Below, one piece after another: positions 30,818 to 56,932 of a DNA stretch of 64,000 nucleotides. Made by a program: the position numbers and the translations under genes. How positions within the stretch are numbered: position 1 is the stretch's first letter; the number at the start of each line of letters is the position of its first letter. The notes beneath the pieces are model-generated. The model was not told the DNA's origin. It worked only from the letters and a program-made list of their open reading frames with translations, and did not search any database. Where the stretch lies: positions 77,169-141,168 of the IMG/VR virus record IMGVR_UViG_3300037423_001636; one strand, 5' to 3'. Origin of the DNA: a virus. Lineage: Duplodnaviria > Heunggongvirae > Uroviricota > Caudoviricetes.

Positions 30818-31591
30818 CTATTTCTTAAGAAGTGATGAGCGAATAATCTGAACGAGAGAAAGGCAGTCTCTGGCCGGAACGGACTCAAACCCCGTCCACT
30901 TGGCTGGATCGCTTTCCAAGTTCGACTTGTATTTCTTTGCCGCCATTGCTTTAAGCTCATCGAATCCAAGCTTCGCTTCTTCCGCAGATCTCTTCAACAT
31001 GGGAATTGGAAGGTGCGGGACTGACCCAGAGCAGCTGCTTTCGGTTGACTCCACCACGGGAACGTGACCCATCTTGATTTCATCGTTGCCGACAATGTGA
31101 ATGCCAAGAAAATTGCGCACCGCTCGAACAAAGGCGCGATTGGCTGCAATGGTCTCTAGATAGGGGTGGAAGTCGGGTTTTACATTCTCCAGAGAGGCCG
31201 CTCCAACATCTCCGAATGACGTTCCGTGCGTGGCGGTCTCGAAGTTTGGCAACCATTCTATTTGCGTCTGTACCACACACTTTGTGTCGCTCACGTATTT
31301 AACTTCCGGTCTCACTTCAGAATAGCCGCGTAATTGTGCCAACTCTTTAATGCCGGCAAGCAGGATTAGCAGATAACGGTCTTCTACCTCTAGCGGAGAA
31401 ATTTCTTTTAGAGAACGTCCAAAGCGCTTGGTCAGGTCTTCCTCATACTGTCGATTGATGACCAGATGGGCCGGATTCACCATCGCCCTCCAATCAACCA
31501 TGCCATTGGACTTGAACCTGTATTCTACGTCGGCCACTAGCCCACGCTCGTCTCGACTGAACACAACCGGAGTTTCGATAATTTCATTCAT
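30818..31591 (-). CDS. Rad52/Sak/Erf-like single-strand annealing protein
   Basis: LLAGIKELA, DVGAAS and ETIAANRAFVRAVRNFLGI resemble the Rad52-fold helix motifs. Confidence 0.6.
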   Translation of the reverse strand: MNEIIETPVVFSRDERGLVADVEYRFKSNGMVDWRAMVNPAHLVINRQYEEDLTKRFGRSLKEISPLEVEDRYLLILLAGIKELAQLRGYSEVRPEVKYVSDTKCVVQTQIEWLPNFETATHGTSFGDVGAASLENVKPDFHPYLETIAANRAFVRAVRNFLGIHIVGNDEIKMGHVPVVESTESSCSGSVPHLPIPMLKRSAEEAKLGFDELKAMAAKKYKSNLESDPAKWTGFESVPARDCLSLVQIIRSSLLKK

Positions 31592-32835
31592 GACTGAAAA
31601 ATGTAAAAGCTGTTAACATCGCGCCAGAATTCGGCGGAATCGATCACTGCGCCAGTATTCTGATCGGTAGACCTTGCCGATTGACCTGATAGTTGATGCG
31701 CTCTACTCAAGTAGACTTTTCCATCTGAGAGTAGAAACCGATTGGTCTTGAAGAAGAGTGTCGATGGATTGATCGTGAGGTCAAGAGGTTTGTTCAGATA
31801 GCTGGCGGCTCCTTTCTGAAACTCGTCAATTGTTGCATGTTGAATCTGGTCAAAGTAGCAGCCGATCTCGAAGAGCTTTAGCCGAAGGTTCCGCAGCTTG
31901 TCCTCATCACTCTCTTCTGTGACGAATTGAGTTGGTATTCCAAGTCGGCGAAGCGCTCTAATCCAATCGACGCTAAGAGTGTCCACTACAATTCGAAGAG
32001 AGTTGATATTTGGTTTTAGTTGAGCAAGCAGATTTAGATTCACCTCTCGATTGAGGATTATGCAGCATTTTCGCAACCTAACATTGGATAGTAGGATGTT
32101 CTCGTCGAAATAGTAATCCATCCTCACGATCAGTGGGCCGGCTATCTGGACGGATGGATCTATTACAACGTTCGGGATTAGTTCGATTTGCGGCGCGTTG
32201 TAATCGGGACCAATGTAGAGGGAGTGACGCGTAATCGATTCAGACTGACCGAGAAGGAGAAGGGCGGCGTTGGCCACTTGCTCGGGGGGAATGACATTTA
32301 CCGTCTTCGGAAACTCGGCTGATTGGTAGCTGGGGCGCTTGCGACCGAAACGATGGGATTCGATGAGAACTGTCTTGAGAGGGTCTTTCCAGTGTGGGCC
32401 ATGATTCTTGGGGTCCGTCGGACCGTAGAGCGTCACGAGTTCGCGACCAGCTGCCCCGCGAATATGCGCCCATTGGGAATCGTTGCCAATGAGTAGCGCG
32501 CAATTCTTTACGAGATAGTGGCATTGGGCGAATGAAGTCCGACCGCACAGAGATTCTTCTACGCCTTTCAACGTTGGCTCGCCGGGACCTCCAATCTGGT
32601 AAAATCGGTATCCCAAGGGCTCCACAATCGGCTTTAACAGCTCCAAAACCTCGACGAAGTGATCGTACAGCTTGGCCGGCTTAGTGGCCTGATTGTTGTT
32701 TACGTCCCCAGCAAACGCGTGAACCAGAATTGTCTTTTCGACGGGGTGGGCCAGTGGGAAAAACGATTCTTCTGTCATGGGGCGGCTAAGACGCACTCCA
32801 CACTGCTTGGCATAGGTAACCGCGAGAGTACTCAT
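31588..32835 (-). CDS. GT9 C-terminal (nucleotide-sugar-binding) domain plus unknown C-terminal domain
   Basis: QIGGPGE, LCGRTSFAQ, LLIGNDSQWAHIRGA, LYGPTDP. Confidence 0.8.
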   Translation of the reverse strand: MSTLAVTYAKQCGVRLSRPMTEESFFPLAHPVEKTILVHAFAGDVNNNQATKPAKLYDHFVEVLELLKPIVEPLGYRFYQIGGPGEPTLKGVEESLCGRTSFAQCHYLVKNCALLIGNDSQWAHIRGAAGRELVTLYGPTDPKNHGPHWKDPLKTVLIESHRFGRKRPSYQSAEFPKTVNVIPPEQVANAALLLLGQSESITRHSLYIGPDYNAPQIELIPNVVIDPSVQIAGPLIVRMDYYFDENILLSNVRLRKCCIILNREVNLNLLAQLKPNINSLRIVVDTLSVDWIRALRRLGIPTQFVTEESDEDKLRNLRLKLFEIGCYFDQIQHATIDEFQKGAASYLNKPLDLTINPSTLFFKTNRFLLSDGKVYLSRAHQLSGQSARSTDQNTGAVIDSAEFWRDVNSFYIFQS

Positions 32836-34727
32836 GCTTCCAGCTCCAGTCCAATTTTATCGTGAGTTAGGTAATTGAGTTGACGCTGCGTGGCAAGCGC
32901 TGGAAAATAATAGCTATCTACATACTGCATCATCACCATTTCTTGCTCCATTACAGGATGATACGGAAGCACCTTATATACATGATGATTCCCGGCAAGA
33001 ATTTCGAAGTATCGTGGCTCGGTTGCCACATACAAGTCTGCGTCGGGATACAGCTCCTTCAGCTTTGGAAATAAGGCAGTGCACATATATACGTCTCCAC
33101 CACTCTCCTTGATGACGAACAGAATTCGCTTACGACCGTTTGAATCGAAGAGGCTGCCGAATTCTTGCGGCGGTTGTGATTTCGCATTATCTTCTGCCGC
33201 CACCTTACGGAAAAACTGATAGATCTGTTCCCGCGGAACTCCGTGCTCTAACTGGTGCATCCAGTTCTTGAACCCGTCGGGGTCCGGTTCGCAAAGCAAT
33301 ATATTTTTGTATAACGCCTTAATCCACTCGCCGGGATTATCAATCTGCGGCATGGGATAATCGGGGTTCTTAAGCTTTGGAGCTAGCGTAATTGAGGACC
33401 AGTCTTTGGGCGGAAGAGCGTCGAATACTTTTTCCCACTGCGGTCCGATAGCGTCGATGGAGAAGGTTTTGGCTGACCAATCGCGCCCTTGTTCGCCCAG
33501 CCGTGTTCGCTCTTTCTTATCAGCCTTCCAAATCTTCTCCATAAAACCTGTGATAGAATCCACGTCATTAGTGGCCTTCATGAATGAGGTGCTAGCCTCA
33601 AAACGGGGATGCCATTTGATGGGATAGATGAATGGCTGAATGCAGAAATCTTCTCCGGAGGAGTAGTTCGTGGTGGCTAGCGGCAAGCCGCAAAGCAGCG
33701 TGTTAACATTCTCAAACTCTAGACCACCAGAAGTCAACGGGCTAATTGTAGCGTCGCGAATACCATATACCAGCTTCATTTCTTCAGCCGGCACACTGTG
33801 AGCAATAGAAACGGTGATGTTAGATTTCTTGGCTCCGCAGAGTGGACAATCAAGATCTTCGCCACCGTATGGTCGCACGTGCCAGCCGCCGCAAGCCTTG
33901 CAAATATAGGTGCAAAGGATGTCATTATTGTCGATTCCGAGATATTTGATGAGTCGCGGGAAGTCCCAGCCGGCCGCCGTCTCGCTCCACGACGTGTGTA
34001 GATGCAGCTTTACATTGGCTCGCGGGTTAACCTGCTTGAACTTCTGAAAAGCGAGGAGAATGTTCAACGCTTCTTTTCTCAGCTGATTACGGAATGTGTA
34101 GCCGAAAATCGTGGCAGACTGGTCAATTCCAAATCGGCGGCGCAGATCAGTCCGTTCGTTCTCTGATAGAGGAGAGAAGTTCTGTACATTCGTGGCTCCA
34201 TAAATCTGCTTGACGTGACCATACTCCGAACCACGCTTCTTCATTTCCTTCGCGGCAAAAGAAGCCCATGTATAGTAGTTTGGCGTAGAGCGTGCCTGCT
34301 CATACGCCAAGTCTAAAACTGGAACTGAGTCTACCGTGACATGAAGAATGGAATTAATCTGCCTCCACCATGGAGCGCCGATAAAGTCTCCTTGATACGA
34401 CCACACGTCATCGCTGCACCATAGAATGTCAGGCTTTTCCTCTTTGACAATTTTGTCGATGTAGTAAGCTCCGTAGGATACCTGTCGCGCCCGAAACGGG
34501 TCCTGATTGAGCTGGGCGATAATCTGAGGATCTGTCGGCACTGCGCCGAAGCTCTTCCATGGCATACGTGCGTGGTTTGGGTCCCCCGCACTAACCTGCG
34601 AACAGTAGTACACCAAATCATATTTGCCAGTCTTCTGGAGATACTGAGCTAGGAACTTGCCGTTCTCCGACAAGCCCGTTGAAATCCAAGGAGGATTGGT
34701 AGTGAGGACGATCTTACGGCGGGCCAT
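32832..34727 (-). CDS. multidomain glycosyltransferase: GT4-like + CxxC ribbon + DUF4214-like + GT9 N-terminal domain
   Basis: STGLSENG, RNQLRKE, SGGLEFENVNTLLCG; CKAC..CPLC; ALYKNILLCEPDPDGFKNW; ILFVIKESGGDVYMCTALFPKLKELYP. Confidence 0.8.
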   Translation of the reverse strand: MARRKIVLTTNPPWISTGLSENGKFLAQYLQKTGKYDLVYYCSQVSAGDPNHARMPWKSFGAVPTDPQIIAQLNQDPFRARQVSYGAYYIDKIVKEEKPDILWCSDDVWSYQGDFIGAPWWRQINSILHVTVDSVPVLDLAYEQARSTPNYYTWASFAAKEMKKRGSEYGHVKQIYGATNVQNFSPLSENERTDLRRRFGIDQSATIFGYTFRNQLRKEALNILLAFQKFKQVNPRANVKLHLHTSWSETAAGWDFPRLIKYLGIDNNDILCTYICKACGGWHVRPYGGEDLDCPLCGAKKSNITVSIAHSVPAEEMKLVYGIRDATISPLTSGGLEFENVNTLLCGLPLATTNYSSGEDFCIQPFIYPIKWHPRFEASTSFMKATNDVDSITGFMEKIWKADKKERTRLGEQGRDWSAKTFSIDAIGPQWEKVFDALPPKDWSSITLAPKLKNPDYPMPQIDNPGEWIKALYKNILLCEPDPDGFKNWMHQLEHGVPREQIYQFFRKVAAEDNAKSQPPQEFGSLFDSNGRKRILFVIKESGGDVYMCTALFPKLKELYPDADLYVATEPRYFEILAGNHHVYKVLPYHPVMEQEMVMMQYVDSYYFPALATQRQLNYLTHDKIGLELEA

Positions 34728-35398
34728 TAAAATGGGATGGGATCGTCAACGCTCTCAATCTGCTTGGTAGGTATCTTAGATGCGTTAACTGGAGCATCGC
34801 TTTTCTGCGGAGAAGATGGCTTCTCTTCCGTCTTACGACCGGCAATTCCCAGCTTTTCAACCAACGCCTTCAGCTCGTTTTCAAAAAACGAGTCCACATC
34901 ACTGTAATCGTTTTTAATCAAATTTCCCTTTTTATCTGTGATGGCCTCGGATTTTGGCTGGTCGGCCAGCTCAATCTTCCACGCGACGCGATCCCCTTTT
35001 TGGGTAAGGCCAAAAGCTTCGTAACCACCGCGATTTTCGTAGTAGGAAATTGAGATGTCGTCGGTAGATCCAAGGGAGAGAAGCGCATTGAAAAGCCCGC
35101 GAGTGGCCATTCGGTAGCTTAGACTGATATGGTAAGTCTCCTTGGCGATAGGGTCGGATACATAAAGCACCACCTGTTTGCTGGTCGTACCCTTAATCTC
35201 ACGATCCTTAAAGTCAATCTTAACCAGATTTCCGTTAACCCGGGTTGGCCTTTCGTTCGTCTTGGCAATTTTGCCGTCAGCGCCAACCCTAGAGACCTCT
35301 AGATATGGCTCCACTTTATTTCCATCCGCATCTTTGCTGCGCGGAGTAATAAATACCAGAGGGTTGCTATCGAATGTCTTACCGTTTGAGAGTGCCAT
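34727..35398 (-). CDS. putative single-stranded DNA-binding protein
   Basis: Beta-rich N-terminus, low-complexity linker, acidic C-terminal DDPIPF tail. Confidence 0.6.
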   Translation of the reverse strand: MALSNGKTFDSNPLVFITPRSKDADGNKVEPYLEVSRVGADGKIAKTNERPTRVNGNLVKIDFKDREIKGTTSKQVVLYVSDPIAKETYHISLSYRMATRGLFNALLSLGSTDDISISYYENRGGYEAFGLTQKGDRVAWKIELADQPKSEAITDKKGNLIKNDYSDVDSFFENELKALVEKLGIAGRKTEEKPSSPQKSDAPVNASKIPTKQIESVDDPIPF

Positions 35399-35450
35399 AT
35401 GAATGAGTATGTTTGAAGTTCGTATCTAATTTGAGCGCAACGGCCCACAC

Positions 35451-35481
35451 TTTATAATCAATGTCTTTAACGCGGTGTCAA
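35451..35481 (-). promoter_or_regulatory. possible sigma70-type promoter for the SSB/GT operon
   Basis: TTGACA at 35481-35476 and TTATAA/TATAAA 18-19 nt downstream. A TATAAT also lies on the + strand at 35453-35458. Confidence 0.35.
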
Positions 35482-35512
35482 GAGGAAAGAGATAAAACTC
35501 TGCTATAGTCGC

Positions 35513-35521
35513 GTGTAATCT
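35513..35521 (+). promoter_or_regulatory. GTGTAA motif before DUF4032-like gene
   Basis: TCGCGTGTAATCT, 7 nt before ATG 35529. Confidence 0.6.
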
Positions 35522-35528
35522 CTATGCT

Positions 35529-35741
35529 ATGCCAACGGGCGAACCGTTCTCCATCGAATCTTCTGAACTATATCAGTTCAGGCAGGCGGAGCGAGCCGAA
35601 ATCGAGCGAAATAAATGGCTCTTGAGCGAGAAGGCTGGTTGCGACGTTGGCTGGGACTATGCTCAGTGGAATTGGATCTGGTGTCACCGCCAAAAGTGGC
35701 TGGACGGACTTAAGGCCGAGGGAAAATACCCATTGCGCTAA
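35529..35741 (+). CDS. small DUF4032-like protein
   Basis: SELY..RQAERAEIERNKWLLSEKAGCDVGW..A..NW...HR..W resembles small Verrucomicrobia proteins. Confidence 0.65.
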   Translation: MPTGEPFSIESSELYQFRQAERAEIERNKWLLSEKAGCDVGWDYAQWNWIWCHRQKWLDGLKAEGKYPLR

Positions 35742-36143
35742 TCAGTCTTCTATTCTGATTCCACACTCTTTCAATAGCTTTGCCCTAGTCTCGCGCTTAA
35801 TCACATCCTTATGTGGTTTTCCTATATCCTTGGCGTAACGTTCGTAATAACGTTCGCGAACGGGATCGTGACCGCCGTTTTTATCGGCGCGAGCTTGCGA
35901 CATCTCTTTCGAAATCTCCCACATATCAGACACCTTGAGATTCTTCGACTGAGTAATCCTGTTAAAGTCCTCTTTGCTAGCGGAGCCGGGTCGCGTGTCG
36001 TGGGCGGCGGCAGGCGCTGACCAGACCCGCTTGTAGAGTTTTCCATCTACTGTTTGAATTTGGCGCTCAGAAGGAGCGGCATCCAATGGCACATAAACCG
36101 AGATAATGTCGCCGTCAGTTGAAGCGAAATCGTATGATGGCAT
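35742..36143 (-). CDS. FmdB-like N-terminal ribbon protein lacking the Cys ligands
   Basis: MPSYDF start and KRVWSAP, the usual FmdB flanks, but no CxxC. Confidence 0.5.
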   Translation of the reverse strand: MPSYDFASTDGDIISVYVPLDAAPSERQIQTVDGKLYKRVWSAPAAAHDTRPGSASKEDFNRITQSKNLKVSDMWEISKEMSQARADKNGGHDPVRERYYERYAKDIGKPHKDVIKRETRAKLLKECGIRIED

Positions 36144-36149
36144 GATAGG

Positions 36150-36158
36150 GATTTACAC
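36150..36158 (-). promoter_or_regulatory. GTGTAA motif before FmdB-like gene
   Basis: CCGTGTAAATC, 6 nt before ATG 36143. Confidence 0.55.
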
Positions 36159-37244
36159 GGAATCTGCCTCGATTTTCACGAGAATCTGGTCCACCGTGCG
36201 TTTGTATGTCTGTTCTGTAGCGAGGTTGCGTCCAGACTCGTTTGGGATCTTTGCCTTCTTTTCAGCTCGATCGAATGCTTCGACAATACTGTCTATTGTG
36301 AAATCATAAAAATTACCCTGTGAAAAAGGCGCTCCTTTATGGAAAAATATGTTATCTACTGCTGGCACCATCCCAGTGGGCTCAATTAAAATGGAGTTTT
36401 CGGCAGTCGCCCAGTCTTTATGAGCGGTCACGTTGGTGACGACACTCCATTTGCCTAGCGCTGTCGCGGTGTGAGCCGGAATATTAAAACCCTCGGATCG
36501 ACTGATCCCAGAAATGTCTATATCAGCTGAATTATATAGCTGATTCATTTCCGCATTTGTCTTCAAATGAGGGAGAACATTCACGTTGAATGGTTTATTC
36601 CCGTTAAACGCCCTTTGGTAGAGGGCGTTCATATCCTCGGGCCGAAAAAATGGATTATTTACGCAGAGAGTGAGTTGGTGCGCCCGGTTGCCGCCATACT
36701 TCTTGATCCACGCTTGGATCTTGAGTGTGGTCATTTTTCTCATCTCTTCATACTTGCCCACGCAGATCCAGTGTATAGTATCTCGCGTTGGTATGGAAGT
36801 TGGCTTAAAGTCCTCGTCTAGCCCCAACGGGACAAAGCCTACATTTTGCGCTCCGTAGCTCCGAAAGTTGTCTACAGACCAAGATGACGAGAAAAACGTG
36901 AAGTCTTGCTGATTGACGATGTTTACTTCGTGCTCAGTTGGACTGTCGGTCTCGTGAAAGCTGAGGGTGTACTGCTTGTCGCTCAACCTAAACTCACTAC
37001 CATTGATGTGCCAGATATTCAGTGTCGGAACTTTCCGATCCACCTTTTTATACCGATTGTTGACCGATTGTTCCAGCCATCCACCAAATGTTTTGTCAAC
37101 CGTGAACGCCGACAGATCGACGTTTCCCCGGGGGAATATCGCACACTGGACCTTTCGACGATACAGTTCTCGAACAATGTTGAATGAAACTTGTGCAAGA
37201 CTTAAATGGGAAAAGGGAACGCTAAGATTGAGTCTTTGAATCAT
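36153..37244 (-). CDS. GT4-family glycosyltransferase
   Basis: VPLGLD, ICVGKYEEMRK, LYNSAD, SRSEGFNIPAHTA. Confidence 0.85.
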   Translation of the reverse strand: MIQRLNLSVPFSHLSLAQVSFNIVRELYRRKVQCAIFPRGNVDLSAFTVDKTFGGWLEQSVNNRYKKVDRKVPTLNIWHINGSEFRLSDKQYTLSFHETDSPTEHEVNIVNQQDFTFFSSSWSVDNFRSYGAQNVGFVPLGLDEDFKPTSIPTRDTIHWICVGKYEEMRKMTTLKIQAWIKKYGGNRAHQLTLCVNNPFFRPEDMNALYQRAFNGNKPFNVNVLPHLKTNAEMNQLYNSADIDISGISRSEGFNIPAHTATALGKWSVVTNVTAHKDWATAENSILIEPTGMVPAVDNIFFHKGAPFSQGNFYDFTIDSIVEAFDRAEKKAKIPNESGRNLATEQTYKRTVDQILVKIEADSV

Positions 37245-37501
37245 TTAGATAGTTTGTCGTATACAAGGCTTAGAAACATGACCACCACTGGCGCAGCCAG
37301 TATAATGCCGAAACCTGTGGGGGTAATTGCCCACACGCCGAATGTGAGCCAAAAGGACAGGCAGAAGGAACATGAAAACAGCTTCCTTATCCAAGGCGGA
37401 ACAGCGGGGGCCAGTGCAGCACGCACTTTAGCCAAAATCTCAGAATGATTTAGCACATAATATATGGCAAACAATGCGGCGCAATATACCAGAAAGTCCA
37501 T
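37241..37501 (-). CDS. small membrane protein, DUF1360-like
   Basis: Hydrophobic helices; LFSCSFCLSFW motif. Confidence 0.6.
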   Translation of the reverse strand: MDFLVYCAALFAIYYVLNHSEILAKVRAALAPAVPPWIRKLFSCSFCLSFWLTFGVWAITPTGFGIILAAPVVVMFLSLVYDKLSK

Positions 37502-37908
37502 CAGTTGGTTTCTGGTTCAAAGTCGTCGCTGATAATATCATTCACGATACTCAGCAACATAATGATATTGCCTTCGTGAATCCCCAGCGCGTCCGCGGGC
37601 GGCAGATCGAGATCGTTCGCATCAAGAAATGTGTTGATGGTATCGGCAATTTCATTGGCTGTCTGCATGGAAATGTGCAGCTCTTGGCCGCCGCCGTTGA
37701 GCGGACTCGACAGGACCCAAAAATCCGTCCCTGCGTCCACAAGCAACTCGTAAGCAACGAGCTGTTTGGCAGCAGATCGAATAAGATGATCTCGCTTGTC
37801 GGCAAGCTCCTCTGGAACGCGGATAGATTCAAAGTCTTCGGTGCCAAACGTGTCTTTATTGCAGAGCAGTCTAACAATCTGGTTCCGGATGTCTAGGAGA
37901 GTCATCAA
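37501..37908 (-). CDS. hypothetical protein
   Basis: 135 aa acidic; first gene of the minus-strand block; TGATG coupling downstream. Confidence 0.6.
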   Translation of the reverse strand: MMTLLDIRNQIVRLLCNKDTFGTEDFESIRVPEELADKRDHLIRSAAKQLVAYELLVDAGTDFWVLSSPLNGGGQELHISMQTANEIADTINTFLDANDLDLPPADALGIHEGNIIMLLSIVNDIISDDFEPETN

Positions 37909-38051
37909 CCCTCGATTGTTTGGGTCTTGAACGTGATGTCAAGATGATTAGACTCCACTGTAGAATGATCGCTCAGATCCCAATCTCACCCTTAGTTCCG
38001 ATCAAGATTGGAGATCAGAGCGCTTCGCGCATAGGTATTAAGGCTTCGCCC

Positions 38052-38267
38052 TCACTCGCCGAGCCTCGTTCGTGCTTCGCCAATTCTTTAGATCCGCGAC
38101 TGAGGTCGCTTGACTGCCGCGTCGGCTGGAGCCTCCTTGGCTCTTCGCCCCTCAAACGGGCTCAGAACCAATTCTCAATCCACAACAGGAAATCATGCGG
38201 GCTTCGCCCTACTATGAAGACCTCGCTCCCGCTCGGTAACTATCCTTCACTCGCCGAGCCTCGTTCG
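38052..38267 (+). repeat. 21-nt direct repeat TCACTCGCCGAGCCTCGTTCG (38052-38072 and 38247-38267)
   Basis: Exact copies read directly in the 576-nt intergenic region. Confidence 0.9.
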
Positions 38268-38484
38268 GATAGTGTGGTCCTTCGGACCAATGTCAAGCAA
38301 ATTCTGCTATATAGACACAACATTCTTCTCATACTGGAGTGAGCACGTAGTGCGAACGGCTTTCGATCTAAGACATAGAGTATGGGCGGAGTGAGAATGA
38401 GACTCGATCTCAAATAGCCTTTGACTCACATTATCTATTGACACGCCCACCAATCTTACTCTACTAGACTTAGGTCCATATTGA

Positions 38485-41405: not shown

Positions 41406-41415
41406 TTTGAACACA

Positions 41416-41858: not shown

Positions 41859-41859
41859 T

Positions 41860-46277: not shown

Positions 46278-46456
46278 CGAGCGATCCAGAGTTCACAAGC
46301 GAACCCACCAACAGCCCGCAGGGTCTCGTCATTTTGCGGGGTCAGCGGCTCTACCTAGCTGGCAATACCACGGAATATATCCTGTGCGACAGTTCAGTGC
46401 TTATCAGGGAAGCCCCACCAGCGCCAGAATCCAAACGAGGAGGACCGTTGCCATGA
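46274..46456 (+). CDS. hypothetical protein
   Basis: 60 aa; ATGA overlaps on both sides. Confidence 0.45.
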   Translation: MTSDPEFTSEPTNSPQGLVILRGQRLYLAGNTTEYILCDSSVLIREAPPAPESKRGGPLP

Positions 46457-48618: not shown

Positions 48619-49430
48619 TCCGCGCAATCGGCTTCATGCAGGGTCTTCGCGGAGACCTTGTAATGTCTACCGTCTGCGCCCGCTCGTTCAAGGAACAATA
48701 TCCTGATGCCCATTTAACCTTAGGCGTTCATAAGCGCTTCAAGGATCTCCTGCCATTATTTCACGATTCCCAGTTCGATTCCACTCACGTATGGGAGACC
48801 TACGACGGCTGGCCGGGACCGCGGGACCTAGAATACATTCAGTCAGCAAAACACGATATAGTTTTTCATGCAATGCCACAGCATCGGGATGAATGGTGGA
48901 AGATACGGCACCAGTATGCAGAGACGGCCTATATGTGCGGGCTACCCATTCCGACAGATATCCGTCCGAAGCTCGCCCGCTGGTTTGGTCTCAACACTAG
49001 CTTCCACAATCGAGTAGTGGCCTTCGCGCCGTTTGGTGGCAACAACGAAGTCAATGACAAAATGCTTAGCGTAGAGCAGGCGCAGGGCATTGTGGACTAC
49101 CTAACCGACCGTGGCTGGTCCGTACTCCATCTTGGCGCTTCCACAGAGCCGGCACTAGAAGGAGCTATATTCTACGATACATCGTATTTCGACTCGGTGC
49201 GGAACATGCTATCGTGCCGAGCCCTCATTCACTGTGACACCGGTATGGGGCACGTAGCAGGCGCATACAACCACCCAAGTCTCGGTATCTATGGCTGGCG
49301 CTATCATGGAGAAGCTGGGCTTAAACATATTCAACCTTTACACGGAAACTTCCTAGCGGTGAATGGACCAAAGGTATGCGAGATTTCACTTGACACTATA
49401 GCCCAGAGCATCGACACTCTGCTAGCATGA
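48615..49430 (+). CDS. GT9-family glycosyltransferase
   Basis: GLRGDLVMST, KEQYPDA, LIHCDTGMGHVAGAY. Confidence 0.85.
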   Translation: MIRAIGFMQGLRGDLVMSTVCARSFKEQYPDAHLTLGVHKRFKDLLPLFHDSQFDSTHVWETYDGWPGPRDLEYIQSAKHDIVFHAMPQHRDEWWKIRHQYAETAYMCGLPIPTDIRPKLARWFGLNTSFHNRVVAFAPFGGNNEVNDKMLSVEQAQGIVDYLTDRGWSVLHLGASTEPALEGAIFYDTSYFDSVRNMLSCRALIHCDTGMGHVAGAYNHPSLGIYGWRYHGEAGLKHIQPLHGNFLAVNGPKVCEISLDTIAQSIDTLLA

Positions 49431-49903
49431 CCCGATTTTTCGCGGCACTATGTTCCGCCTTCCTGCTTCTACTCACTGGCTGCGGCTATCCCAAACACAT
49501 CGATCCGCCTACGCTGACTTATCCATCTCAACAAATGGCTGAAGAGTCAGCGTATCTTCATGCGCGGGATTTACCCAATGGTCCCGGCTTGACCCTTCTA
49601 ATCATTCCACCCACACACTCCATGGCCCCTACAATTGACGTTGGGGATATTATCGTTGTAGACACTCACGCTCCTTACTCGGAGCGAGTTCCGGGTGAAA
49701 TAGTAACGTATTTCGGTGTGGATGGAGAATGGAAAGATCGGCCGAAAGATTCTCCTCCAATCACTCATCGCATCAGCTCGAAGCATTCTGATGGATTCAT
49801 AATGACCGGCGACAATAATCGATATAGTGAGTCTCGGTCTCGGGTTACGGAGACGAACTATGTGGGGCTCGTTGTAGGCATATACAGGGTTTCGACCAAG
49901 TAG
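49427..49903 (+). CDS. lipoprotein with S26 signal peptidase domain (Ser/His type)
   Basis: Lipobox LLLTG-C19; THSMAPTIDVGD; ITHRI; MTGDNN. Confidence 0.8.
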   Translation: MTRFFAALCSAFLLLLTGCGYPKHIDPPTLTYPSQQMAEESAYLHARDLPNGPGLTLLIIPPTHSMAPTIDVGDIIVVDTHAPYSERVPGEIVTYFGVDGEWKDRPKDSPPITHRISSKHSDGFIMTGDNNRYSESRSRVTETNYVGLVVGIYRVSTK

Positions 49904-49924
49904 GTTGTAGGATTTCATCAAATC

Positions 49925-50902
49925 ATGAGCAATCCTTTCAAGTTGATTATGCTTAGCGCATATCATGAGCAAGGTGGCAATGTCCTCCATCGATTCCTCG
50001 ACAGCCATCCTCAGTTGATGGTTTATCCCATGGAATCGACTTGCGCTACACCACTCTCTGCCAATCTCATCGCTGGCCCAAATCACTGGATGCCACAGCG
50101 GTATGCCTACCCGGAGTTCGGAAGCGAGTGGACTGTGGAGCAGTGCTATCACGCAATGGCCGACCATGAGCTGAAGACCTATCTCCGCTCTCCTCACGCG
50201 TCCAAGTTCCGCGACTGCGGGCTCGTGATGGACGAGAAGGCGCGGCTGGATCGCTTCAATGAGTTGATGACTGAGGCGAAATGGGATAACGCGGACGGAA
50301 TGGGAGATTCAGGATTTGCCTCTCGTCGCCAGCATATCGAAGCCTTCTTCCGAGCCACCTTCGATACATGGACCAATTTCGCCCGCACTGGCAAGGAGAC
50401 CCACTACGTCGGCTATATTCCCCCAATTCTGATGGACGCCGACAAGTTCTTCGCAGACTTCCCGAATGGCCACATGGTCCATATCGTCCGCAATCCGTGG
50501 TCGGGCTACGCGGACACTATCAAACGCCCCTTTCCGTTTCCTCTAGAGCGCTACTGCCAGATGTGGAACGTGTGTTCTACTCAAGCGGCGGTCTATGCGG
50601 CCAAGTACGAGGGTAGATTCCATACGCTGAAATATGAACATCTTGTATTAAAGCCCAAATCAATTCTCGACGACCTTCTGTCCGATTTGAGGCTAGATCC
50701 ATTTACGAGCGAGCCGCGCCCTTCGTTCAACCGAAAGTCTCTGGAAACCGTTTTTCCATGGGGCACAATCAAACACGCGACAGAAGAAGCGAATCTAGCT
50801 ACCGCCCGCGAGCTGACCAAAGAGCAGATGGAGGCTATCTATATGGAATGTGGTTTAGCGGTTGAGCAATGGAGTTATGGGCCGTTCTACATGAAGCTGT
50901 GA
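49925..50902 (+). CDS. sulfotransferase-fold protein
   Basis: EQGGNVLHRFLDSHPQL, HIVRNPW, LKYEHLV. Confidence 0.75.
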   Translation: MSNPFKLIMLSAYHEQGGNVLHRFLDSHPQLMVYPMESTCATPLSANLIAGPNHWMPQRYAYPEFGSEWTVEQCYHAMADHELKTYLRSPHASKFRDCGLVMDEKARLDRFNELMTEAKWDNADGMGDSGFASRRQHIEAFFRATFDTWTNFARTGKETHYVGYIPPILMDADKFFADFPNGHMVHIVRNPWSGYADTIKRPFPFPLERYCQMWNVCSTQAAVYAAKYEGRFHTLKYEHLVLKPKSILDDLLSDLRLDPFTSEPRPSFNRKSLETVFPWGTIKHATEEANLATARELTKEQMEAIYMECGLAVEQWSYGPFYMKL

Positions 50903-51798
50903 GCAGCGTTTTTCACACTCCTCGCCGGCTCGCTGAGTATGTCGCCTTGCGCCGCTCCATCTTTCACCTGAAGACCGATCAGCCGCCAAACAAGCTGCGG
51001 CACGATATTGTGATCAAAGGAGATACAATCATCCGACATTCCCAGATGGGGAATCCCGATCTCTCCATGTGGGTGGAGAGAATGGTGGTCGAGAAAGCGG
51101 CGGGCGCTGGAGCGCGGATCATCCATCTCGAAATTGGCAACGATGACAAGAGCACCTACCATGTGATGGCGCGGGCGAAGGGCATTCCCCTAGCCGAAGT
51201 GCCGGCTGGGCGACCGAGGCAGATCGCGTTCTGCGGGCTGGGCATGGAACTGGCGCGACTGCATCAGATACAAGGGAAGGGTGCCGGGTTTGTATACCCA
51301 TCAGACGGTCTGGTGATTGGCGTGCAGGAACGGTGGGCGGACCATTTACTCGCCAAGCTAGGAAACCACATCCAAATTCCCGATCTATTCTACGTTAACC
51401 ATCGAATCTCCACACTGATTTCAACTTTCTGCGATACCGCTCATGTCTATCCCACAGTCCTCCTCCACGCTGATCTAAATCCGCACAATATCTTCGTTAA
51501 CTCATCCAGCGCATTTCCCATCACGGCGATACTCGACTGGGAAGATGCTCTCGTCGGAGACCCAATCTACGATCTGGCGAACTGGGCGACATTTCACGAT
51601 GCCGAGGAAGACGATTGGGACCAGTTGTTTGCGGGCTATTACGCACGGACCGAACGCCCATCGGATTTTGACTGGCGATTCTGGATCTACTATCTTCGCA
51701 TTTCCGTTTCTAAATACGTGCAGCTCCAGAGGTATGGATTTCCCGATCTCACCCGCGCCCGCCGCCGTATCGACCGCGCACTGGAGGCTCTCGAATGA
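50899..51798 (+). CDS. APH/choline-kinase-like phosphotransferase
   Basis: LLHADLNPHNI, ILDWEDALVGDPIYDLA; GTGA overlap start. Confidence 0.88.
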   Translation: MSSVFHTPRRLAEYVALRRSIFHLKTDQPPNKLRHDIVIKGDTIIRHSQMGNPDLSMWVERMVVEKAAGAGARIIHLEIGNDDKSTYHVMARAKGIPLAEVPAGRPRQIAFCGLGMELARLHQIQGKGAGFVYPSDGLVIGVQERWADHLLAKLGNHIQIPDLFYVNHRISTLISTFCDTAHVYPTVLLHADLNPHNIFVNSSSAFPITAILDWEDALVGDPIYDLANWATFHDAEEDDWDQLFAGYYARTERPSDFDWRFWIYYLRISVSKYVQLQRYGFPDLTRARRRIDRALEALE

Positions 51799-52487
51799 AT
51801 CTGGGGCTGCTTACTCACTACCTACCAAATCCGTCCGAAGACTATTCGGAATTGGCCGCAATCACTATCCCTCAGCGTGAAGAGTATTGCCGCCGCCATG
51901 GATACACTCATTTCGTTCACAAGGGACCGTATCACAATGTGTCTTATTACTATGCGGTGCAACGTCTGTTTCTACTCAACGATCTGATGGTGGCTAACCC
52001 GCACATTGACGTATGGTGGGTGTTGAATGTGCAGGCGCTTCTGACGAATCTAACGAAGCCAGTAGAAGATGCGGTGCCCGACGTTCACGATAGACTCCTC
52101 GACGAGGAGGACAAGCACTTCTGGATCTCACACGATTGCCATGGTCTCAACGCTGGCTCGTTTCTTGTCCGAAACAGCGAATGGGGCCGCACATGGATTC
52201 AGCTTGTAGCCGACCAGACTGTCAATCGCAATGGTCCTGCCGACCCGTGGCATGAACAGCGGACCATGATGAATTTGGAGAATCATGTGTTCTTTCGCGA
52301 CCGCATTCAGATTGTTCTTCAGAATACGATCAACTCTTATCTGTATAAATTGTACCCCCCGTGGAACGATTCTACCCCCGGCAACTGGGCTTCGGGAGAT
52401 TTGGTGCTTAGTCTTCCGGGGCTGGACCTCAAGCGTCGGCTGGAGATAGTGCGAAGCGAGGAATGGCAGAGAAGGATTATTACATGA
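51795..52487 (+). CDS. GT34-like (MNN10/GMA12) protein with degenerate DxD
   Basis: EYCRRHGY, LNAGSFLVRNSEW, HEQ, INSY; NVQ at the DxD position. Confidence 0.75.
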   Translation: MNLGLLTHYLPNPSEDYSELAAITIPQREEYCRRHGYTHFVHKGPYHNVSYYYAVQRLFLLNDLMVANPHIDVWWVLNVQALLTNLTKPVEDAVPDVHDRLLDEEDKHFWISHDCHGLNAGSFLVRNSEWGRTWIQLVADQTVNRNGPADPWHEQRTMMNLENHVFFRDRIQIVLQNTINSYLYKLYPPWNDSTPGNWASGDLVLSLPGLDLKRRLEIVRSEEWQRRIIT

Positions 52488-52735
52488 CCAATGAACCAAT
52501 AGACGGGGGTAAACGCTACATTCCACATGTAGGTATTGCCAATGCGCGGCGAGGAGAGTGCATGGAGGTTAGGAGGCCCAAGAAACAGAAGATTCCCAAA
52601 ACAATGACGTTCATTATGGAGCCGGAGATAAAACCGCACCTAGATTATCCCTCTGCTGGCCCCAGTATCTGGCGTGATATGATGAAAGAGATGATTATAA
52701 AAGATGCAACCATCGGCATTTGGGCTTCAAAATGA
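52484..52735 (+). CDS. hypothetical protein
   Basis: ATGA overlaps on both sides fill the gap exactly. Confidence 0.4.
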   Translation: MTNEPIDGGKRYIPHVGIANARRGECMEVRRPKKQKIPKTMTFIMEPEIKPHLDYPSAGPSIWRDMMKEMIIKDATIGIWASK

Positions 52736-53607
52736 CTCCAATCCTTTACGACAACATTCTGTTTCGGACCACCGATCTTCACGCTGCCTTCATGGATAAA
52801 ACAGTCTTCATCGCTGGCCGCGGCTTCTTTGGCCGTTGGTTTCAAGGATTTTTCGAACATCTGAACAAACGGGGTATTAACGTGAGCGTGCAGGCCGCGT
52901 CCAAGTCGGGCGGCTGGGACATTAACGATCCCAGCACGTATTCCGAATTTCAGAAGAGCGCTGACTATATCATCAATGCCTGTGGCTCGGCCTCCGCACA
53001 ACTGCCCGATGAGGAGATCGTTCAACAGCATCTAGCGGGGCCGATCAATCTACGTTCCCATACGAAGCCCGGCGCAGTTATGCTACAGATTTCCAGCGGG
53101 GCCGCGATCAACCCGAAGAATTGTTACGGGTCCTGCAAGCAGGCGGCGGAAAACCATCTTCTCTCGATGGGGGGCAAGACCCAGATTGTAAGAGTCTTCG
53201 CGACCATCGGGCCGGGCATGGATCTGAACACGCATTTCGCCATTCCCACGTTTATTCGAAATACTCTGGCAGGACAACCCATTGCCGCCATTCCCGGCGT
53301 ATCTCGCTCGTTTGCTCATGTGTGCGACGTAATAACTCAGTGTCTTCACGTGATGATAAATGGAGACGGGAAGCCCTATGATGTCGGTTCGGATGATCTG
53401 ATTTCTATAGAAGACGCAGCCAACCTGATTTCAGAAAACGTTATTTGGGCGGGGCGCGATACGTTTCAGAGTAATGCGGCGGTGAACTTGTATGCAGCCA
53501 ACCTTACTAGAATCAAGGATCAGTTCAATTTAGGAATTGACTGGTCCAGCAGAGCCGCGATACTCTCTACATGGCGCGCATTCTCCAATGCCTCTAACAC
53601 GACTTGA
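52732..53607 (+). CDS. NAD-dependent epimerase/dehydratase (extended SDR)
   Basis: FIAGRGFFGRW, ISSGA, YGSCK, RSFAHVCD. Confidence 0.85.
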   Translation: MTPILYDNILFRTTDLHAAFMDKTVFIAGRGFFGRWFQGFFEHLNKRGINVSVQAASKSGGWDINDPSTYSEFQKSADYIINACGSASAQLPDEEIVQQHLAGPINLRSHTKPGAVMLQISSGAAINPKNCYGSCKQAAENHLLSMGGKTQIVRVFATIGPGMDLNTHFAIPTFIRNTLAGQPIAAIPGVSRSFAHVCDVITQCLHVMINGDGKPYDVGSDDLISIEDAANLISENVIWAGRDTFQSNAAVNLYAANLTRIKDQFNLGIDWSSRAAILSTWRAFSNASNTT

Positions 53608-54229
53608 ACGCAGGATTCTAGAACTATCGTATAAACATCGCAGGAGTCATATCGGCAGCTGTTTGGGCGCTGCGCCGATTCTCGATGAGATGTACTCGAA
53701 GCGCCGGCCGGATGAGCCGGTAATTCTGTCATGCGGACACGCGGGCTTAGCTCTGTACTGTGTTTTGGAAAAGTACTATGGACACATCGATGCGGAAGAC
53801 CTGTTGATGCGACATGGTGTCCATCCGACCAAAAACGCTGAAGATGGAATCTGGTGTTCGACAGGATCTTTAGGACAGGGAATCACGGTTGCGACAGGGA
53901 GGGCTCTCGTAGACCGGGGGCGCGACGTATGGTGCTTGATCAGTGATGGAGAATGCGCCGAAGGATCGGTATATGAAGCGCTTAGGCTAGCAGGCGAGAA
54001 GCGGCTCACAAACCTCCGAGTCTATTGCCATTGGAATGGCTACGGAGCATATCGCCAGATCGAAGGCGGCGCGCTAGACACTATGAGATTACTATGCCGC
54101 TGGATGGAGGTGCGTGGAATCCGGCCAGAAGGATTGGGCATTCCGTTTTTGAAGGCGCAGGACGCCCACTACACTCAGATGTCAGAAGAGGATTGGAAAT
54201 GGGTCCAATCACAAGAGATCATTCCATGA
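53588..54229 (+). CDS. transketolase-like, N-terminal TPP-binding subunit
   Basis: SHIGSCL, LSCGHA, HP, STGSLGQG, SDGECAEG. Confidence 0.9.
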   Translation: MPLTRLERRILELSYKHRRSHIGSCLGAAPILDEMYSKRRPDEPVILSCGHAGLALYCVLEKYYGHIDAEDLLMRHGVHPTKNAEDGIWCSTGSLGQGITVATGRALVDRGRDVWCLISDGECAEGSVYEALRLAGEKRLTNLRVYCHWNGYGAYRQIEGGALDTMRLLCRWMEVRGIRPEGLGIPFLKAQDAHYTQMSEEDWKWVQSQEIIP

Positions 54230-54705
54230 GACGCGACTTCCACCCTCTCCTTCACGCCGCCATGAAGCGGGATGATAGAATATGGCTTTTGACGGCCGAC
54301 CTTGGATATAAAATGTGGGACCAAATCTTTACAGACTTCCCAGATCGCGCGGTCAATGTAGGTGCCAGCGAACAACTACTCATCGGGACCGCTGTGGGTC
54401 TGGCTGAAGACGGCAAGATACCCGTGGCCTATTCCATCACCCCATTCCTCCTCTATCGGCCGGCAGAATGGATTCGCAACTTTATACATCGAGAGAATGT
54501 GCCGGTGAAGCTGCTGGGAGGGGGTCGTGACACGGATTATCTCGAAGACGGTTACACCCATTATGCTGGTGACGATGGCGAGTTCCTCAACCTATTCCCG
54601 GGGATAAAGGGATTCTGGCCGCAGGACGTGAAGGAACTGAAGGAACATGCGTTCCAAACGTGGCTGCATTATGATGGGCCGGCGTATTTGAATTTGAGAC
54701 GATGA
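54226..54705 (+). CDS. transketolase-like, pyrimidine-binding subunit (no C-terminal domain)
   Basis: LTADLG, NVGASEQ..IGTAVGLA, GYTH. Confidence 0.88.
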   Translation: MRRDFHPLLHAAMKRDDRIWLLTADLGYKMWDQIFTDFPDRAVNVGASEQLLIGTAVGLAEDGKIPVAYSITPFLLYRPAEWIRNFIHRENVPVKLLGGGRDTDYLEDGYTHYAGDDGEFLNLFPGIKGFWPQDVKELKEHAFQTWLHYDGPAYLNLRR

Positions 54706-56186
54706 GAATCGCGGTGATGTCTCTCTATCACGAGAACTATCAACCTCTCGCTGATATTGTGCTGCCCAACTGGACCGCCTACTGTAAGAGACATGGATAC
54801 GACCTTAAAGTCTTTCGCGGCAAATATGGGGCTGGTGGTATCGGTTACCAGAAAATGCGATTTCTCTACGACGAGATGTTTGTTAAAGGAACCGTAGACT
54901 TGGCTTGGGTCGTCGATCTGGACGTGCTTATCACAAATCATACCAGACGTATTGAAGAGTTTGTGAATAAGCGGGACTCCTACTATCTTACTCTTGAACC
55001 TTGGAGCCGAATCAACCATGGCAGTTTTATCGTGGTGAAATCGGAATGGTCGAAAGGAGTCGTCGAGACTGTCCTGTCCTGTATCGATCGGTGGGGCGAT
55101 GAACAGACGGTTCTTAATAAGGAATATTTCGAGACGGCGAAGTGTGAGGAGAATCGCATCGCTTTTCTCCCGCACCCCTCGATAAACAGTTTCATGTGCA
55201 AGCTCTATCTCAACCCAGCTCTCCACGATAATCTGCCAGCAGCCGAGTGGGCACCGGGACACTTTGCATTGCATTTGATGGGCATTTCCCAAGAACAGCG
55301 CATTAGAATCTTCACTTCTCGATTCATACAGGATAGCATCGTGTATACTGATTCTCAGGCTGCCACCAAAGACGTTAGAGTGGGTGTTTTTACAGTTTAT
55401 CTCCCCAACTACCAGTCTTTGGCCGATATCACCTTGCCGAACTGGAGAGAATACTGCGACAAGCATGGATACAAGCTATTTGCTCATTGTAGCGATAGAA
55501 CGGATGAAGTTGTCGGCTTTCAAAAAATCCGGTATCTTTACTATCTAATGTTCGAGACCAACCAGATCGATTTGGCGCTGGGGGTAGACCTTGACATCCT
55601 CTTCACCAACCTCGCGTTCAAGGTGGAGGATTTTACCGACGAGGATCATACCTACTATCTGACGGTGGATTGGGATGGTATCAATCATGGCAGCTTCATC
55701 GTGAAGAAGTCCGACAAATCAAAGAAGATTCTTGAGCATATCCTAAAGCTGTCCAAATACTATCCGAACGAACAGGACGTGCTTAAACGCAATATCCACA
55801 AGCTCAATTCCGAGCTGTTCGACAACACGATCAAGCTCTTGAATCAGCCTAGCGTCAACAGCTTTCTTTGCGACCGCTATCCAGAACACTACATTCTGCC
55901 TCGCTCGCATCCGCACAACTGGGAGCGTGGCCATTTTATCCTCCACTGTTTGGGGCAGACCTTGGATGATAGGGTGAAAAACTTGCGCGAGAAACTTGGA
56001 GAGGTTGTGTGTGACGATAAATATCGACGCCAATTCATAAAACGCCTGCGTGAGATGCCGCCGCCAAGCGCTGTTGGCGCGAACGGCCATGCCGCGCAAC
56101 AACTTCCGACTTGTCCGATGACTAGAGATAGAATTATCAAGTGGCAGAATCACGCGTTTAGCGAGAGAATGGCTAAGACCTTATGA
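54702..56186 (+). CDS. tandem double GT34-like glycosyltransferase
   Basis: Two copies of NYQ.LADI.LPNW..YC..HGY, VDLD, INHGSFIV.KS, EQ, S.NSF.C and W..GHF.LH. Confidence 0.85.
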   Translation: MRIAVMSLYHENYQPLADIVLPNWTAYCKRHGYDLKVFRGKYGAGGIGYQKMRFLYDEMFVKGTVDLAWVVDLDVLITNHTRRIEEFVNKRDSYYLTLEPWSRINHGSFIVVKSEWSKGVVETVLSCIDRWGDEQTVLNKEYFETAKCEENRIAFLPHPSINSFMCKLYLNPALHDNLPAAEWAPGHFALHLMGISQEQRIRIFTSRFIQDSIVYTDSQAATKDVRVGVFTVYLPNYQSLADITLPNWREYCDKHGYKLFAHCSDRTDEVVGFQKIRYLYYLMFETNQIDLALGVDLDILFTNLAFKVEDFTDEDHTYYLTVDWDGINHGSFIVKKSDKSKKILEHILKLSKYYPNEQDVLKRNIHKLNSELFDNTIKLLNQPSVNSFLCDRYPEHYILPRSHPHNWERGHFILHCLGQTLDDRVKNLREKLGEVVCDDKYRRQFIKRLREMPPPSAVGANGHAAQQLPTCPMTRDRIIKWQNHAFSERMAKTL

Positions 56187-56932
56187 AAATTGGAATCATC
56201 TACTGCGGCTATAACGCCGAGGACTATCTGCCCGGCTCTCTATCCCCATGGATCAAAGCCCGTAAGTCCCAGCTGGGCGGCCACGACTGGATAATCTGCG
56301 CTGTCGCAGTTCCATTCGAGAATTTTGTAGCAACCACGCCCGACCACACTATTGCAATCCTTCGAATCCGGCTGGCATTGGCCGAGATCGACCATCTGAT
56401 TACAAGCGCCGCCCCTCTCAAAGAGACGGTCGCCCGCACGCAAGCGTTGCAATGGCTGGCGGGGCAGAAAGTGGACGTATATTGGATGGTCGATTCAGAC
56501 GAGTTCTACACGACAGATGAGATTGAACGCATCGCCACCTTCGTGACCGAACGTCCTCTTGTGGCATGGTATCGTTTATGCCTTCGCAATTACGTCTTTG
56601 ATGAGCGCACCTATCTAGTCGAACCGTTCACTCCGCCGCGCATCTACCGGGCAGAATATGCGTTCCGCAACGCCGTCGAGTTTTACGACGACAACAACAT
56701 AGCCTATAATACTGTAGACGGAGCATTGGTGCGGGACAATTTGTTTCCCAGTGCGACGGTACCCAAAGCGGTGGGATGGATAGCGCACAAATCGTGGCTG
56801 AACAATTCCAGAAGCAGGGATAAGGTTCGATATCAGGAAGCCAGATCTTGGCGGTGTACATTCGCTTGGGACGAGTCCCGCGGGGGTCTAGTCTGGCGCG
56901 ATACTCCACAGGAGACGGCGCGAGATAGTTAG
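56183..56932 (+). CDS. GT2/GT-A-like glycosyltransferase
   Basis: ETVARTQAL, YWMVDSDEFY, PPRIYR, IAH.SW. Confidence 0.75.
   Translation: MKIGIIYCGYNAEDYLPGSLSPWIKARKSQLGGHDWIICAVAVPFENFVATTPDHTIAILRIRLALAEIDHLITSAAPLKETVARTQALQWLAGQKVDVYWMVDSDEFYTTDEIERIATFVTERPLVAWYRLCLRNYVFDERTYLVEPFTPPRIYRAEYAFRNAVEFYDDNNIAYNTVDGALVRDNLFPSATVPKAVGWIAHKSWLNNSRSRDKVRYQEARSWRCTFAWDESRGGLVWRDTPQETARDS

Follow-up and report, generated by a model that had tools for sequence, protein, structure and literature searches.

A split glycosyltransferase pair and a variable glycan operon in the core genome of an uncultivated ~200-kb siphovirus-like phage: a candidate system for virion glycosylation

Why would a bacteriophage carry some 25 kb of glycan-building genes, and to what would their product be attached? 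These questions are raised by a 64,000-nucleotide stretch of viral DNA (the window; bases 77169-141168 of the 205,168-bp IMG/VR record IMGVR_UViG_3300037423_001636), in which the interval 31588-56932 is dense with glycosyltransferase (GT) genes. Our leading reading, held tentatively, is that the acceptor is one or more phage virion proteins, glycosylated before or during assembly. In a fuller form, which we favour more tentatively still, a large uncultivated clade of ~200-kb siphovirus-like phages would cover its particles in a long heteroglycan (methylated, sulfated and/or phosphorylated) assembled entirely in the cytoplasm: a conserved split GT would prime a virion protein, while an exchangeable operon of as many as ~30 genes would add a lineage-specific outer glycan.

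To establish what the locus encodes, hidden Markov model (HMM), profile and fold evidence was combined, identifying 12 supported GT genes and one candidate, with about 15 GT domains, across about 25 kb. These comprise three GT4-like, three GT9-like, four GT-A/GT2-like plus the candidate, and three GT34 members. The tailoring set consists of four methyltransferases, a sulfotransferase and an APH-family kinase, with a cupin, an SDR protein, a split thiamine diphosphate (ThDP) enzyme and a GDP-mannose 4,6-dehydratase (Gmd) beside them. The sulfo-, methyl- and phosphotransferases fit polysaccharide tailoring. An initial annotation, made without database searches, had counted about 13 soluble GT genes plus tailoring enzymes, and these searches bear out that total. 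Its family counts came very close: three GT4 and three GT34 members stand, while its four GT9 domains become three GT9-like ones, one of them a split domain, and the GT-A/GT2 group settles at four plus the candidate. About 15 GT domains would point to a heteroglycan with many distinct linkages.

The GTs lack membrane segments, as had been proposed: in a hydropathy scan, no GT contained a hydrophobic 19-mer at or above a Kyte-Doolittle (KD) value of 1.6, and none has a transmembrane (TM) helix. The absence of export and priming genes, read earlier from the window, was confirmed by a search of the complete genome, which contains neither type of initiator (WbaP/PglC, PF02397; WecA, PF00953; positive controls matched) nor an ABC transporter (PF00005). 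The sole multi-pass open reading frame (ORF) of the genome, a 7-TM protein at genome positions 10020-11195 (L002), lies outside the window and far from the cluster, and it has no Pfam match and no homologue in the relative G002 described below. With no initiator, flippase-like protein or ABC transporter, the genome encodes no self-contained undecaprenyl phosphate-dependent O-antigen or capsule pathway of the Wzx/Wzy or ABC type. The complete genome also contains no NTP_transferase, so the basic nucleotide sugars would come from the host.

The record carries direct terminal repeats and is rated 100% complete. PHROGs matches place the large terminase at 320-2206 and, on the minus strand, a lambda-like tail tip (J at 10430-14806, then I, K, L and M) and a tape measure gene at 17977-23811. 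The tail tip and tape measure therefore indicate a siphovirus-type phage, uncultivated and ~200 kb in size. No integrase was found in the complete genome, and the phage is therefore probably virulent. A porin-like ORF with a signal peptide suggests a Gram-negative host. Searches of 50,697 deposited phages (megablast, tblastn) returned no match to the tape measure protein, the whole operon, the 631-aa GT, the tube-like protein or the GT34 protein.

How firmly are the glycan genes rooted in this phage? In G002, a complete 190.7-kb relative with direct terminal repeats, the whole region lies in synteny at 34-65% protein identity. The initial annotation had proposed looking for co-conservation with the structural module, and the two modules do persist together: G002 keeps 21 of the 28 genes of the plus-strand operon and 25 of the 27 structural genes, along with the entire minus-strand block (8/8) and 17 of the 23 nucleotide and replication genes. 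The accessory arms, in contrast, keep only 11 of 147 and 8 of 96 genes, so that about 92% of accessory genes differ. Because they are kept like the structural and replication genes and unlike the accessory arms, the glycan genes appear to belong to the core genome, as an old part of the phage and not a recently acquired moron. This conservation is directly observed, as are the enzyme families, their solubility and the lack of genes for export or priming. A 201.8-kb NCBI contig likewise carries the operon's first half, and homologues of two of its GT-A genes (39384-40223 and 40220-41041) occur on many contigs of 180-210 kb. An early reading that another relative, G001, lacks the operon, which arose from divergence at the PIF1 helicase, was dropped: the 201.8-kb NCBI contig has PIF1 and then the operon.

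The locus is not conserved evenly. For its 631-aa GT (32832-34727), IMG/VR yields 164 relatives or more, and a large collection contains 155 protein clusters; nearly all are 606-690 aa long, with 48-67% identity among the 120 matches listed. Neighbourhoods were counted in 79 fetched loci of these relatives. The partner gene, 31588-32835, has a homologue in 73 of the 79 loci, and the gene at 30818-31591 has one in 68, adjoining the GT pair. Homologues of the GT4 gene at 36153-37244 occur in only 12 loci, and those of the plus-strand operon genes in at most six. The minus-strand block is still found beside J-like genes in G004, a complete but distant relative of 200 kb; the operon genes are represented there only by a weak FkbM-like match, plus Gmd, and a smaller, different sugar gene set stands in the operon's place. 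Since the core pair is present in most loci and the operon genes in few, and since G004 keeps the block without the operon, the gene content indicates two tiers, a conserved core pair joined to a variable, sub-lineage-specific island.

The core pair has an unusual architecture. Its first gene (32832-34727, minus strand) encodes a GT4-like GT-B enzyme with an inserted Cys4 ribbon, a DUF4214 domain and the N-terminal half of a GT9 domain; residues 5-436 match the PHROG glycosyltransferase phrog_2170 (E = 4e-11). The GT9 domain is divided between the last ~120 residues of this protein and the first ~200 of the 415-aa product of 31588-32835 (minus strand), and the two genes overlap by ATGA. The second protein contributes the donor-binding half (about residues 1-200; PF01075, 47 bits), followed by a further C-terminal domain of ~215 aa. 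For the donor half, the best PDB sequence match of the family profile is WaaF (1psw, E = 4e-7), and TibC is not among the matches. The acceptor half was recognized as GT9 by eye, and hhalign gives 59% to the N-terminus of 48615-49430. Every one of the 60 evaluable relatives encodes the two halves as separate ORFs; the only fusion is in G002. This division of one GT9 domain across two genes resembles split GT-B enzymes such as Alg13/Alg14.

A third GT of the minus strand, the GT4-type enzyme at 36153-37244, shows 64% identity to its G002 homologue and 43% to its G004 homologue; its PF13692 match (E = 6e-5) is below the cut-off. The start of this gene is overlapped by 4 nt by the stop of 37241-37501 (minus strand), which encodes an 86-aa protein with two TM segments in the hydropathy scan and homologues in G001 and G002. 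This small protein could act as a membrane tether for the coupled GT4. In the relative L101 (NCBI contig JAWVGW010000034.1), a gene for an Acb2/Tad1-hairpin protein, an anti-CBASS/Thoeris sponge, was noted at 4192-4602, among small ORFs just downstream of a likely GT4 homologue, on the minus strand and well before the DUF4214 GT.

The genomic setting of the core pair was also examined in the relatives. In 61 of the 79 loci, a homologue of a 901-aa ORF of this genome, which we take to be a DnaE-type polymerase core, ends just upstream of the pair, and further upstream lie homologues of Toprim-domain (primase-like) and DnaB-type helicase genes (Pfam). On the other side stands 30818-31591 (minus strand), whose product is not a glycan enzyme. 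Its AlphaFold2 (AF2) model (pLDDT 86) has a beta-beta-beta-alpha domain with VIA Z values of 8.3 to RAD52, 6.4 to phage 80alpha Sak and 6.3 to Mgm101, making it, with moderate confidence, probably a Rad52/Sak-like single-strand annealing protein (SSAP). A J-like gene lies ~7 kb downstream of the core pair in 10 loci.

The second tier, the plus-strand operon at 38485-56932, spans ~18 kb with about 30 closely packed ORFs that show 4-nt overlaps. Its first gene, 38485-39387, encodes a GT4-type GT (PF00534, 27.2 bits, over the cut-off), on which weak Pfam matches to GT4-conflict were also seen. The product of the next gene, 39384-40223, is a GT-A fold GT from a family without a Pfam model. Its AF2 structure (pLDDT 95) finds TarP, SpsA and WrtF among its best Foldseek matches (E about 1e-6), and TarS; the family has 72 homologues, and its profile matches 3bcv (E = 7e-4) among GT2 structures. 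A GT2-like GT follows at 40220-41041, with PF00535 found on three of the 104 listed homologues. After the cupin at 41818-42300 (PF07883, 38 bits), a candidate sugar-nucleotide epimerase or isomerase, two GT-A/GT2-like GTs were assigned from ESM Atlas structures: 42297-43139, with a TM-score of 0.57-0.76 to PF00535 clusters, and 43738-44475, with 0.64-0.70 to GT2/GNT-I clusters.

The middle of the operon is rich in methyltransferases. FkbM enzymes are encoded at 44472-45149 (PF05050, 51.5 bits) and 46384-46998 (56.5 bits), flanking a compact GT9-like GT-B enzyme at 45146-45916 (ESM Atlas structure, TM-score 0.79 to a PF01075 cluster) that has three paralogues in G002. Two further S-adenosylmethionine (SAM) methyltransferases lie at 47333-47932 (PF13578, 26.4 bits) and 47929-48618 (PF08242/PF13489). 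The gene at 48615-49430 encodes a GT9-like GT; its PF01075 score of 21 bits is just short of the cut-off (22), and hhalign gives 92% to 31588-32835. At 49427-49903 lies a lipobox lipoprotein gene, possibly for an S24/S26-type peptidase; the lipobox and peptidase motifs were read by eye and the PF00717 match is weak (E = 0.065). This lipoprotein is kept in G002 (46%) at another position.

Towards the 3' end, the sulfotransferase at 49925-50902 (PF13469, Sulfotransfer_3, 40 bits; 54% identity in G002) is followed by the APH-family kinase at 50869-51798 (PF01636, 64.5 bits). The GT34-type GT-A enzymes comprise a single-domain protein at 51795-52487 (PF05637, 83 bits) and a tandem double protein at 54702-56186 (73 and 42 bits), whose halves align at 100% in hhalign. 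A GT34 profile run against 185,579 representative prokaryote genomes found no relative. Between the GT34 genes lie the SDR epimerase/reductase at 52720-53607 (PF01370, 37 bits) and a split, minimal ThDP enzyme at 53537-54705, made of a Transketolase_N protein (53537-54229; PF00456, 37 bits) and a Transket_pyr protein (about 54226-54705; PF02779, 50 bits), with no transketolase C-terminal domain. The weak GT-A candidate at 56183-56932 has PF00535 at E = 0.02 over the DxD region and no match in a PDB profile search. Gmd lies further on, at 61136-62164 (plus strand; PF16363, 228 bits). Across the cluster, an all-versus-all hhalign comparison with two-sequence profiles recovered only the GT34 trio, the GT9 pair and the split GT9, and eight of the ten Pfam-negative ORFs submitted to PHROGs and NCBIfam had no match.

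Taken as one pathway, these enzymes suggest the following scheme. In the first, ancient tier, the GT4-like-DUF4214 protein with its GT9 acceptor half (32832-34727) would work together with the GT9 donor half (31588-32835), and the GT4 at 36153-37244 would belong to the core in part of the lineage. The translationally coupled operon would then extend the glycan with its GT4, GT-A, GT9-like and GT34 enzymes. The four methyltransferases, the sulfotransferase and the kinase would decorate or cap the chain. Gmd is predicted to form GDP-4-keto-6-deoxymannose, which the SDR protein and the cupin could turn into 6-deoxyhexoses, and the minimal ThDP enzyme, made of two subunits, could contribute a branch of two carbons. 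The pathway would run in the host cytoplasm, with the host supplying basic nucleotide sugars, 3'-phosphoadenosine-5'-phosphosulfate (PAPS) and SAM. The variable tier would give each sub-lineage its own surface glycan.

We rank the virion first among possible acceptors because the phage looks virulent, because the cluster is kept like the structural genes, and because its machinery parallels that of chloroviruses. The initial annotation had also put the virion first, and that ranking survives, although its two supporting arguments, from Ser/Thr content and from gene position, are weak. The three paralogues of a ~300-420-aa structural protein (8962-10233, plus strand; 26545-27672 and 27745-28644, minus strand), found on at least 121 IMG/VR contigs, and J had been called very Ser/Thr-rich. 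Their combined Ser and Thr content is 19-22%, where the genome averages 13.7% (sd 4.4); they have no Ser/Thr tracts, and enrichment of N-x-S/T sequons in the structural proteins is marginal. The largest relevant values in the Ser/Thr and sequon check, z 2.2 for 26545-27672 and z 2.8 for 17221-17970, are unconvincing after multiple testing. The 'tube' label of the paralogues is itself by position only, as a 34-sequence profile gave no PDB match and there is no PHROG match.

The position of the core pair in most relatives also counts against a virion acceptor. It is true, as noted earlier, that in this genome the minus-strand GT block runs in the same direction as the tail genes and adjoins them, but Rad52-like and SSB-like genes are interleaved with it. 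In the 61 of the 79 relatives counted above, the pair stands between the DnaE-type polymerase gene and the Rad52-like SSAP gene and is not in a structural operon; because the pair sits at this replication/tail junction, co-orientation is weak evidence for a virion role. A shared upstream motif does not help either. The motif CGTGTAAA occurs 14 times in the window against 1.4 expected, for example at 23850, 26442, 27710, 28736, 30757 and 36152 (minus strand), in most cases upstream of the start of a structural gene, at a distance of 8-92 nt. It is not restricted to structural genes and therefore cannot time the operon, and it is absent from the plus strand of the operon at 38.4-57 kb. Finally, which enzyme acts when, from which donors and on which acceptor are all matters that we infer from the gene content.

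The next reading, less probable but a serious rival, is remodelling of the host envelope. Soluble GTs at the cytoplasmic face of the inner membrane would act on lipid A-core or on a host-primed undecaprenyl-linked glycan, and host MsbA/Lpt, Wzx/Wzy or ABC systems would export the product, blocking superinfection or keeping progeny from sticking to debris. The earlier argument that a locus without export genes must serve a cytoplasmic acceptor does not follow. Lipopolysaccharide (LPS)-core GT9 and GT4 enzymes and kinases have no TM helices and rely on MsbA/Lpt, and TarP is a phage-encoded soluble GT-A enzyme that modifies host teichoic acid exported by host TarGH. The GT9 (with WaaF as best PDB match), GT4 and kinase genes here belong to these same LPS-core (waa) classes, and TarP is among the best fold matches of 39384-40223. 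A link to the membrane is offered by the 2-TM ORF at 37241-37501, coupled to the GT4 gene and kept in both G001 and G002, and by the lipoprotein inside the operon; these, like the waa-type enzymes, count against a virion acceptor. The combination of FkbM methyltransferase and kinase also recalls WbdD, which terminates O-antigen chains.

Comparable cyanophage clusters have, moreover, been published as changing the host surface (PMC1079782, PMC12801897). Several considerations nevertheless lower our estimate of envelope remodelling. The genome lacks an integrase, and the phages known to convert host surfaces are temperate. It would be costly to maintain thirteen GTs in the core genome through deep divergence for a transient effect on a cell that will lyse. 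With no ligase, flippase or initiator of its own, the phage would also have to fit every membrane step to host machinery.

We consider it improbable that the product is soluble and stays in the cell, either as a cytoplasmic methylated polysaccharide, as in mycobacterial methylglucose lipopolysaccharide (MGLP) or methylmannose polysaccharide (MMP), or as a glycosylated small molecule serving host reprogramming or counter-defence. Such a product would suit a set of enzymes that are all soluble, with abundant methyltransferases and no carrier or export gene, as well as the weak GT4-conflict Pfam matches on 38485-39387. It has no phage precedent, however, and no recognizable primer or carrier protein is encoded; core conservation beside virion genes fits a structural role better.

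Least probable of all, and very unlikely, is nucleic-acid glycosylation, in which the core pair would modify phage DNA (or tRNAs) against host nucleases and the operon would extend the sugar: T4 beta-glucosyltransferase is also a GT-B enzyme, and the core pair lies between DNA polymerase and SSAP genes in most relatives, with the SSB-like ORF adjoining here, but adjacency at a module junction is weak evidence, 13 GTs with sulfo-, methyl- and phosphotransferases far exceed any known DNA glycan, and the usual hydroxyl-bearing bases are probably not made. The complete genome contains neither a thymidylate-synthase-family hydroxymethylase (PF00303) nor a C5-cytosine methyltransferase (PF00145), with positive controls matched for both, which makes DNA, the alternative acceptor named initially, unlikely. 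Tet/JBP (PF12851) likewise had no match in the genome, though its positive control matched nowhere either.

Several genes within the span do not belong to the glycan pathway: an SSB-like ORF, an RF-1-domain gene, the lipoprotein, the 2-TM ORF and several ORFs of no recognized family. The 223-aa ORF at 34727-35398 (minus strand) is possibly a single-stranded DNA-binding (SSB)-like protein. Its acidic C-terminal tip ending in PF, shared with the G001 homologue, resembles the partner-binding tail of SSB; this is a by-eye call on aligned C-termini, and HMM and PDB searches gave no match. The conserved 133-aa protein at 35742-36143 (minus strand) has homologues in G001, G002, G004 and L095 and a copy of the motif 9 nt upstream of its gene, and a PDB profile search gave nothing usable. 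The RF-1 domain protein encoded within the operon at 40995-41405 (plus strand; PF00472, 47 bits), which resembles the peptidyl-tRNA hydrolase ArfB, has no match in G002. An Rfam search of 35300-38600, including the 575-nt divergent intergenic region, found no RNA.

If the glycan is on the virion, as we tentatively favour, protein glycosylation encoded by a virus on the chlorovirus scale would extend to bacteriophages, in which demonstrated cases use one to four genes. Many abundant uncultured phages would then carry variable sugar coats, with possible consequences for adsorption and grazing, for recognition by immune systems or lectins, and for the stability of the particle. Such an arrangement would amount to an O-antigen-like serotype system for virus particles, on a scale for which giant eukaryotic viruses have so far been the only example. 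If the glycan is instead on the host envelope, LPS would be rewritten by a virulent jumbo phage that brings soluble enzymes alone and leaves export to the host. In both cases the split GT4-DUF4214-GT9 pair offers a cloneable entry point to the purpose of lytic-phage glycan clusters, a question open since P-SSM2 (2005).

How does the locus compare with known systems? It shares with LPS core synthesis and O-antigen capping (GT9 enzymes WaaC/WaaF, the GT4 enzyme WaaG, WaaP and WbdD) the same classes of soluble or peripheral enzymes and the lack of its own flippase. It differs in that no WaaL and no precursor genes for 3-deoxy-D-manno-octulosonate (Kdo) or heptose were detected, in its additional GT-A and GT34 enzymes and sulfotransferase, and in its GT9 split across two genes. 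Aah and TibC belong to the GT9 Pfam family and act in the cytoplasm, where they hyperglycosylate beta-rich autotransporter proteins on Ser residues. They illustrate a way in which tail proteins could be modified by a GT9-like enzyme, although the best PDB sequence match of the core GT9 half here is WaaF.

Among phages, the closest match in scale comes from cyanophages. The initial annotation had judged the pathway much more elaborate than known systems, a view that published clusters of similar size contradict: the 'LPS' cluster of P-SSM2 has 24 genes (PMC1079782), and S-SCSM2R has 13 GTs among 22 genes, with a cluster likewise in S-SCSM1 (PMC12801897). As in these, a large lytic-type phage carries about a dozen GTs with nucleotide diphosphate (NDP)-sugar enzymes; their function in cyanophages is a proposed one. 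In contrast to the cyanophage clusters, the present phage has a siphovirus-type, lambda-like tail tip and no deposited relative, and no Kdo genes or export component were seen. Its gene content also sets it apart (GT9, GT34, sulfotransferase, APH kinase, FkbM and the split ThDP enzyme), as does its two-tier layout with a core pair on at least 164 contigs. In moraphages, four core GT orthogroups have been described (PMC12619734).

Virion glycosylation itself has phage precedents. The mycobacteriophages Che8, Corndog and Myrna (Freeman et al. 2023, as cited in PMC12619734 and PMC12801897) resemble the present phage in encoding their own soluble GTs, with an O-methyltransferase in some; in the present phage, too, capsid or tail proteins would be the ones decorated. 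Their systems are reported to comprise one to four genes in actinobacteriophages, in or next to structural operons, and to have been shown by mass spectrometry, whereas here about 25 enzymes are found in a phage with a probable Gram-negative host. The core pair here is, in addition, linked to the replication module in most relatives.

The parallel that most favours a virion acceptor lies in chloroviruses, which use soluble GTs without signal peptides and a viral GMD to glycosylate capsid protein in the cytoplasm (PMC5408694). One of their proteins fuses a GT34-like GT-A domain to a methyltransferase, and their GT genes are expressed early and are not in structural operons (PMC5408694). The likeness to PBCV-1 (A064R, A111/114R, A075L, GMD; PMC5408694, PMC7826918) is one of features and covers soluble GTs, a GT34-like GT-A domain, methyltransferases, GMD and multidomain GTs. 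PBCV-1 is a eukaryotic virus with scattered genes and a proven glycan on Vp54, whereas the present genes are clustered and include enzymes for sulfation and phosphorylation. Against this background the size of the locus is not unprecedented. What is new is a lineage without a deposited relative, the mix of GT9, GT34, sulfotransferase, kinase and ThDP enzymes, a quantified core status, and a split GT pair within a two-tier system.

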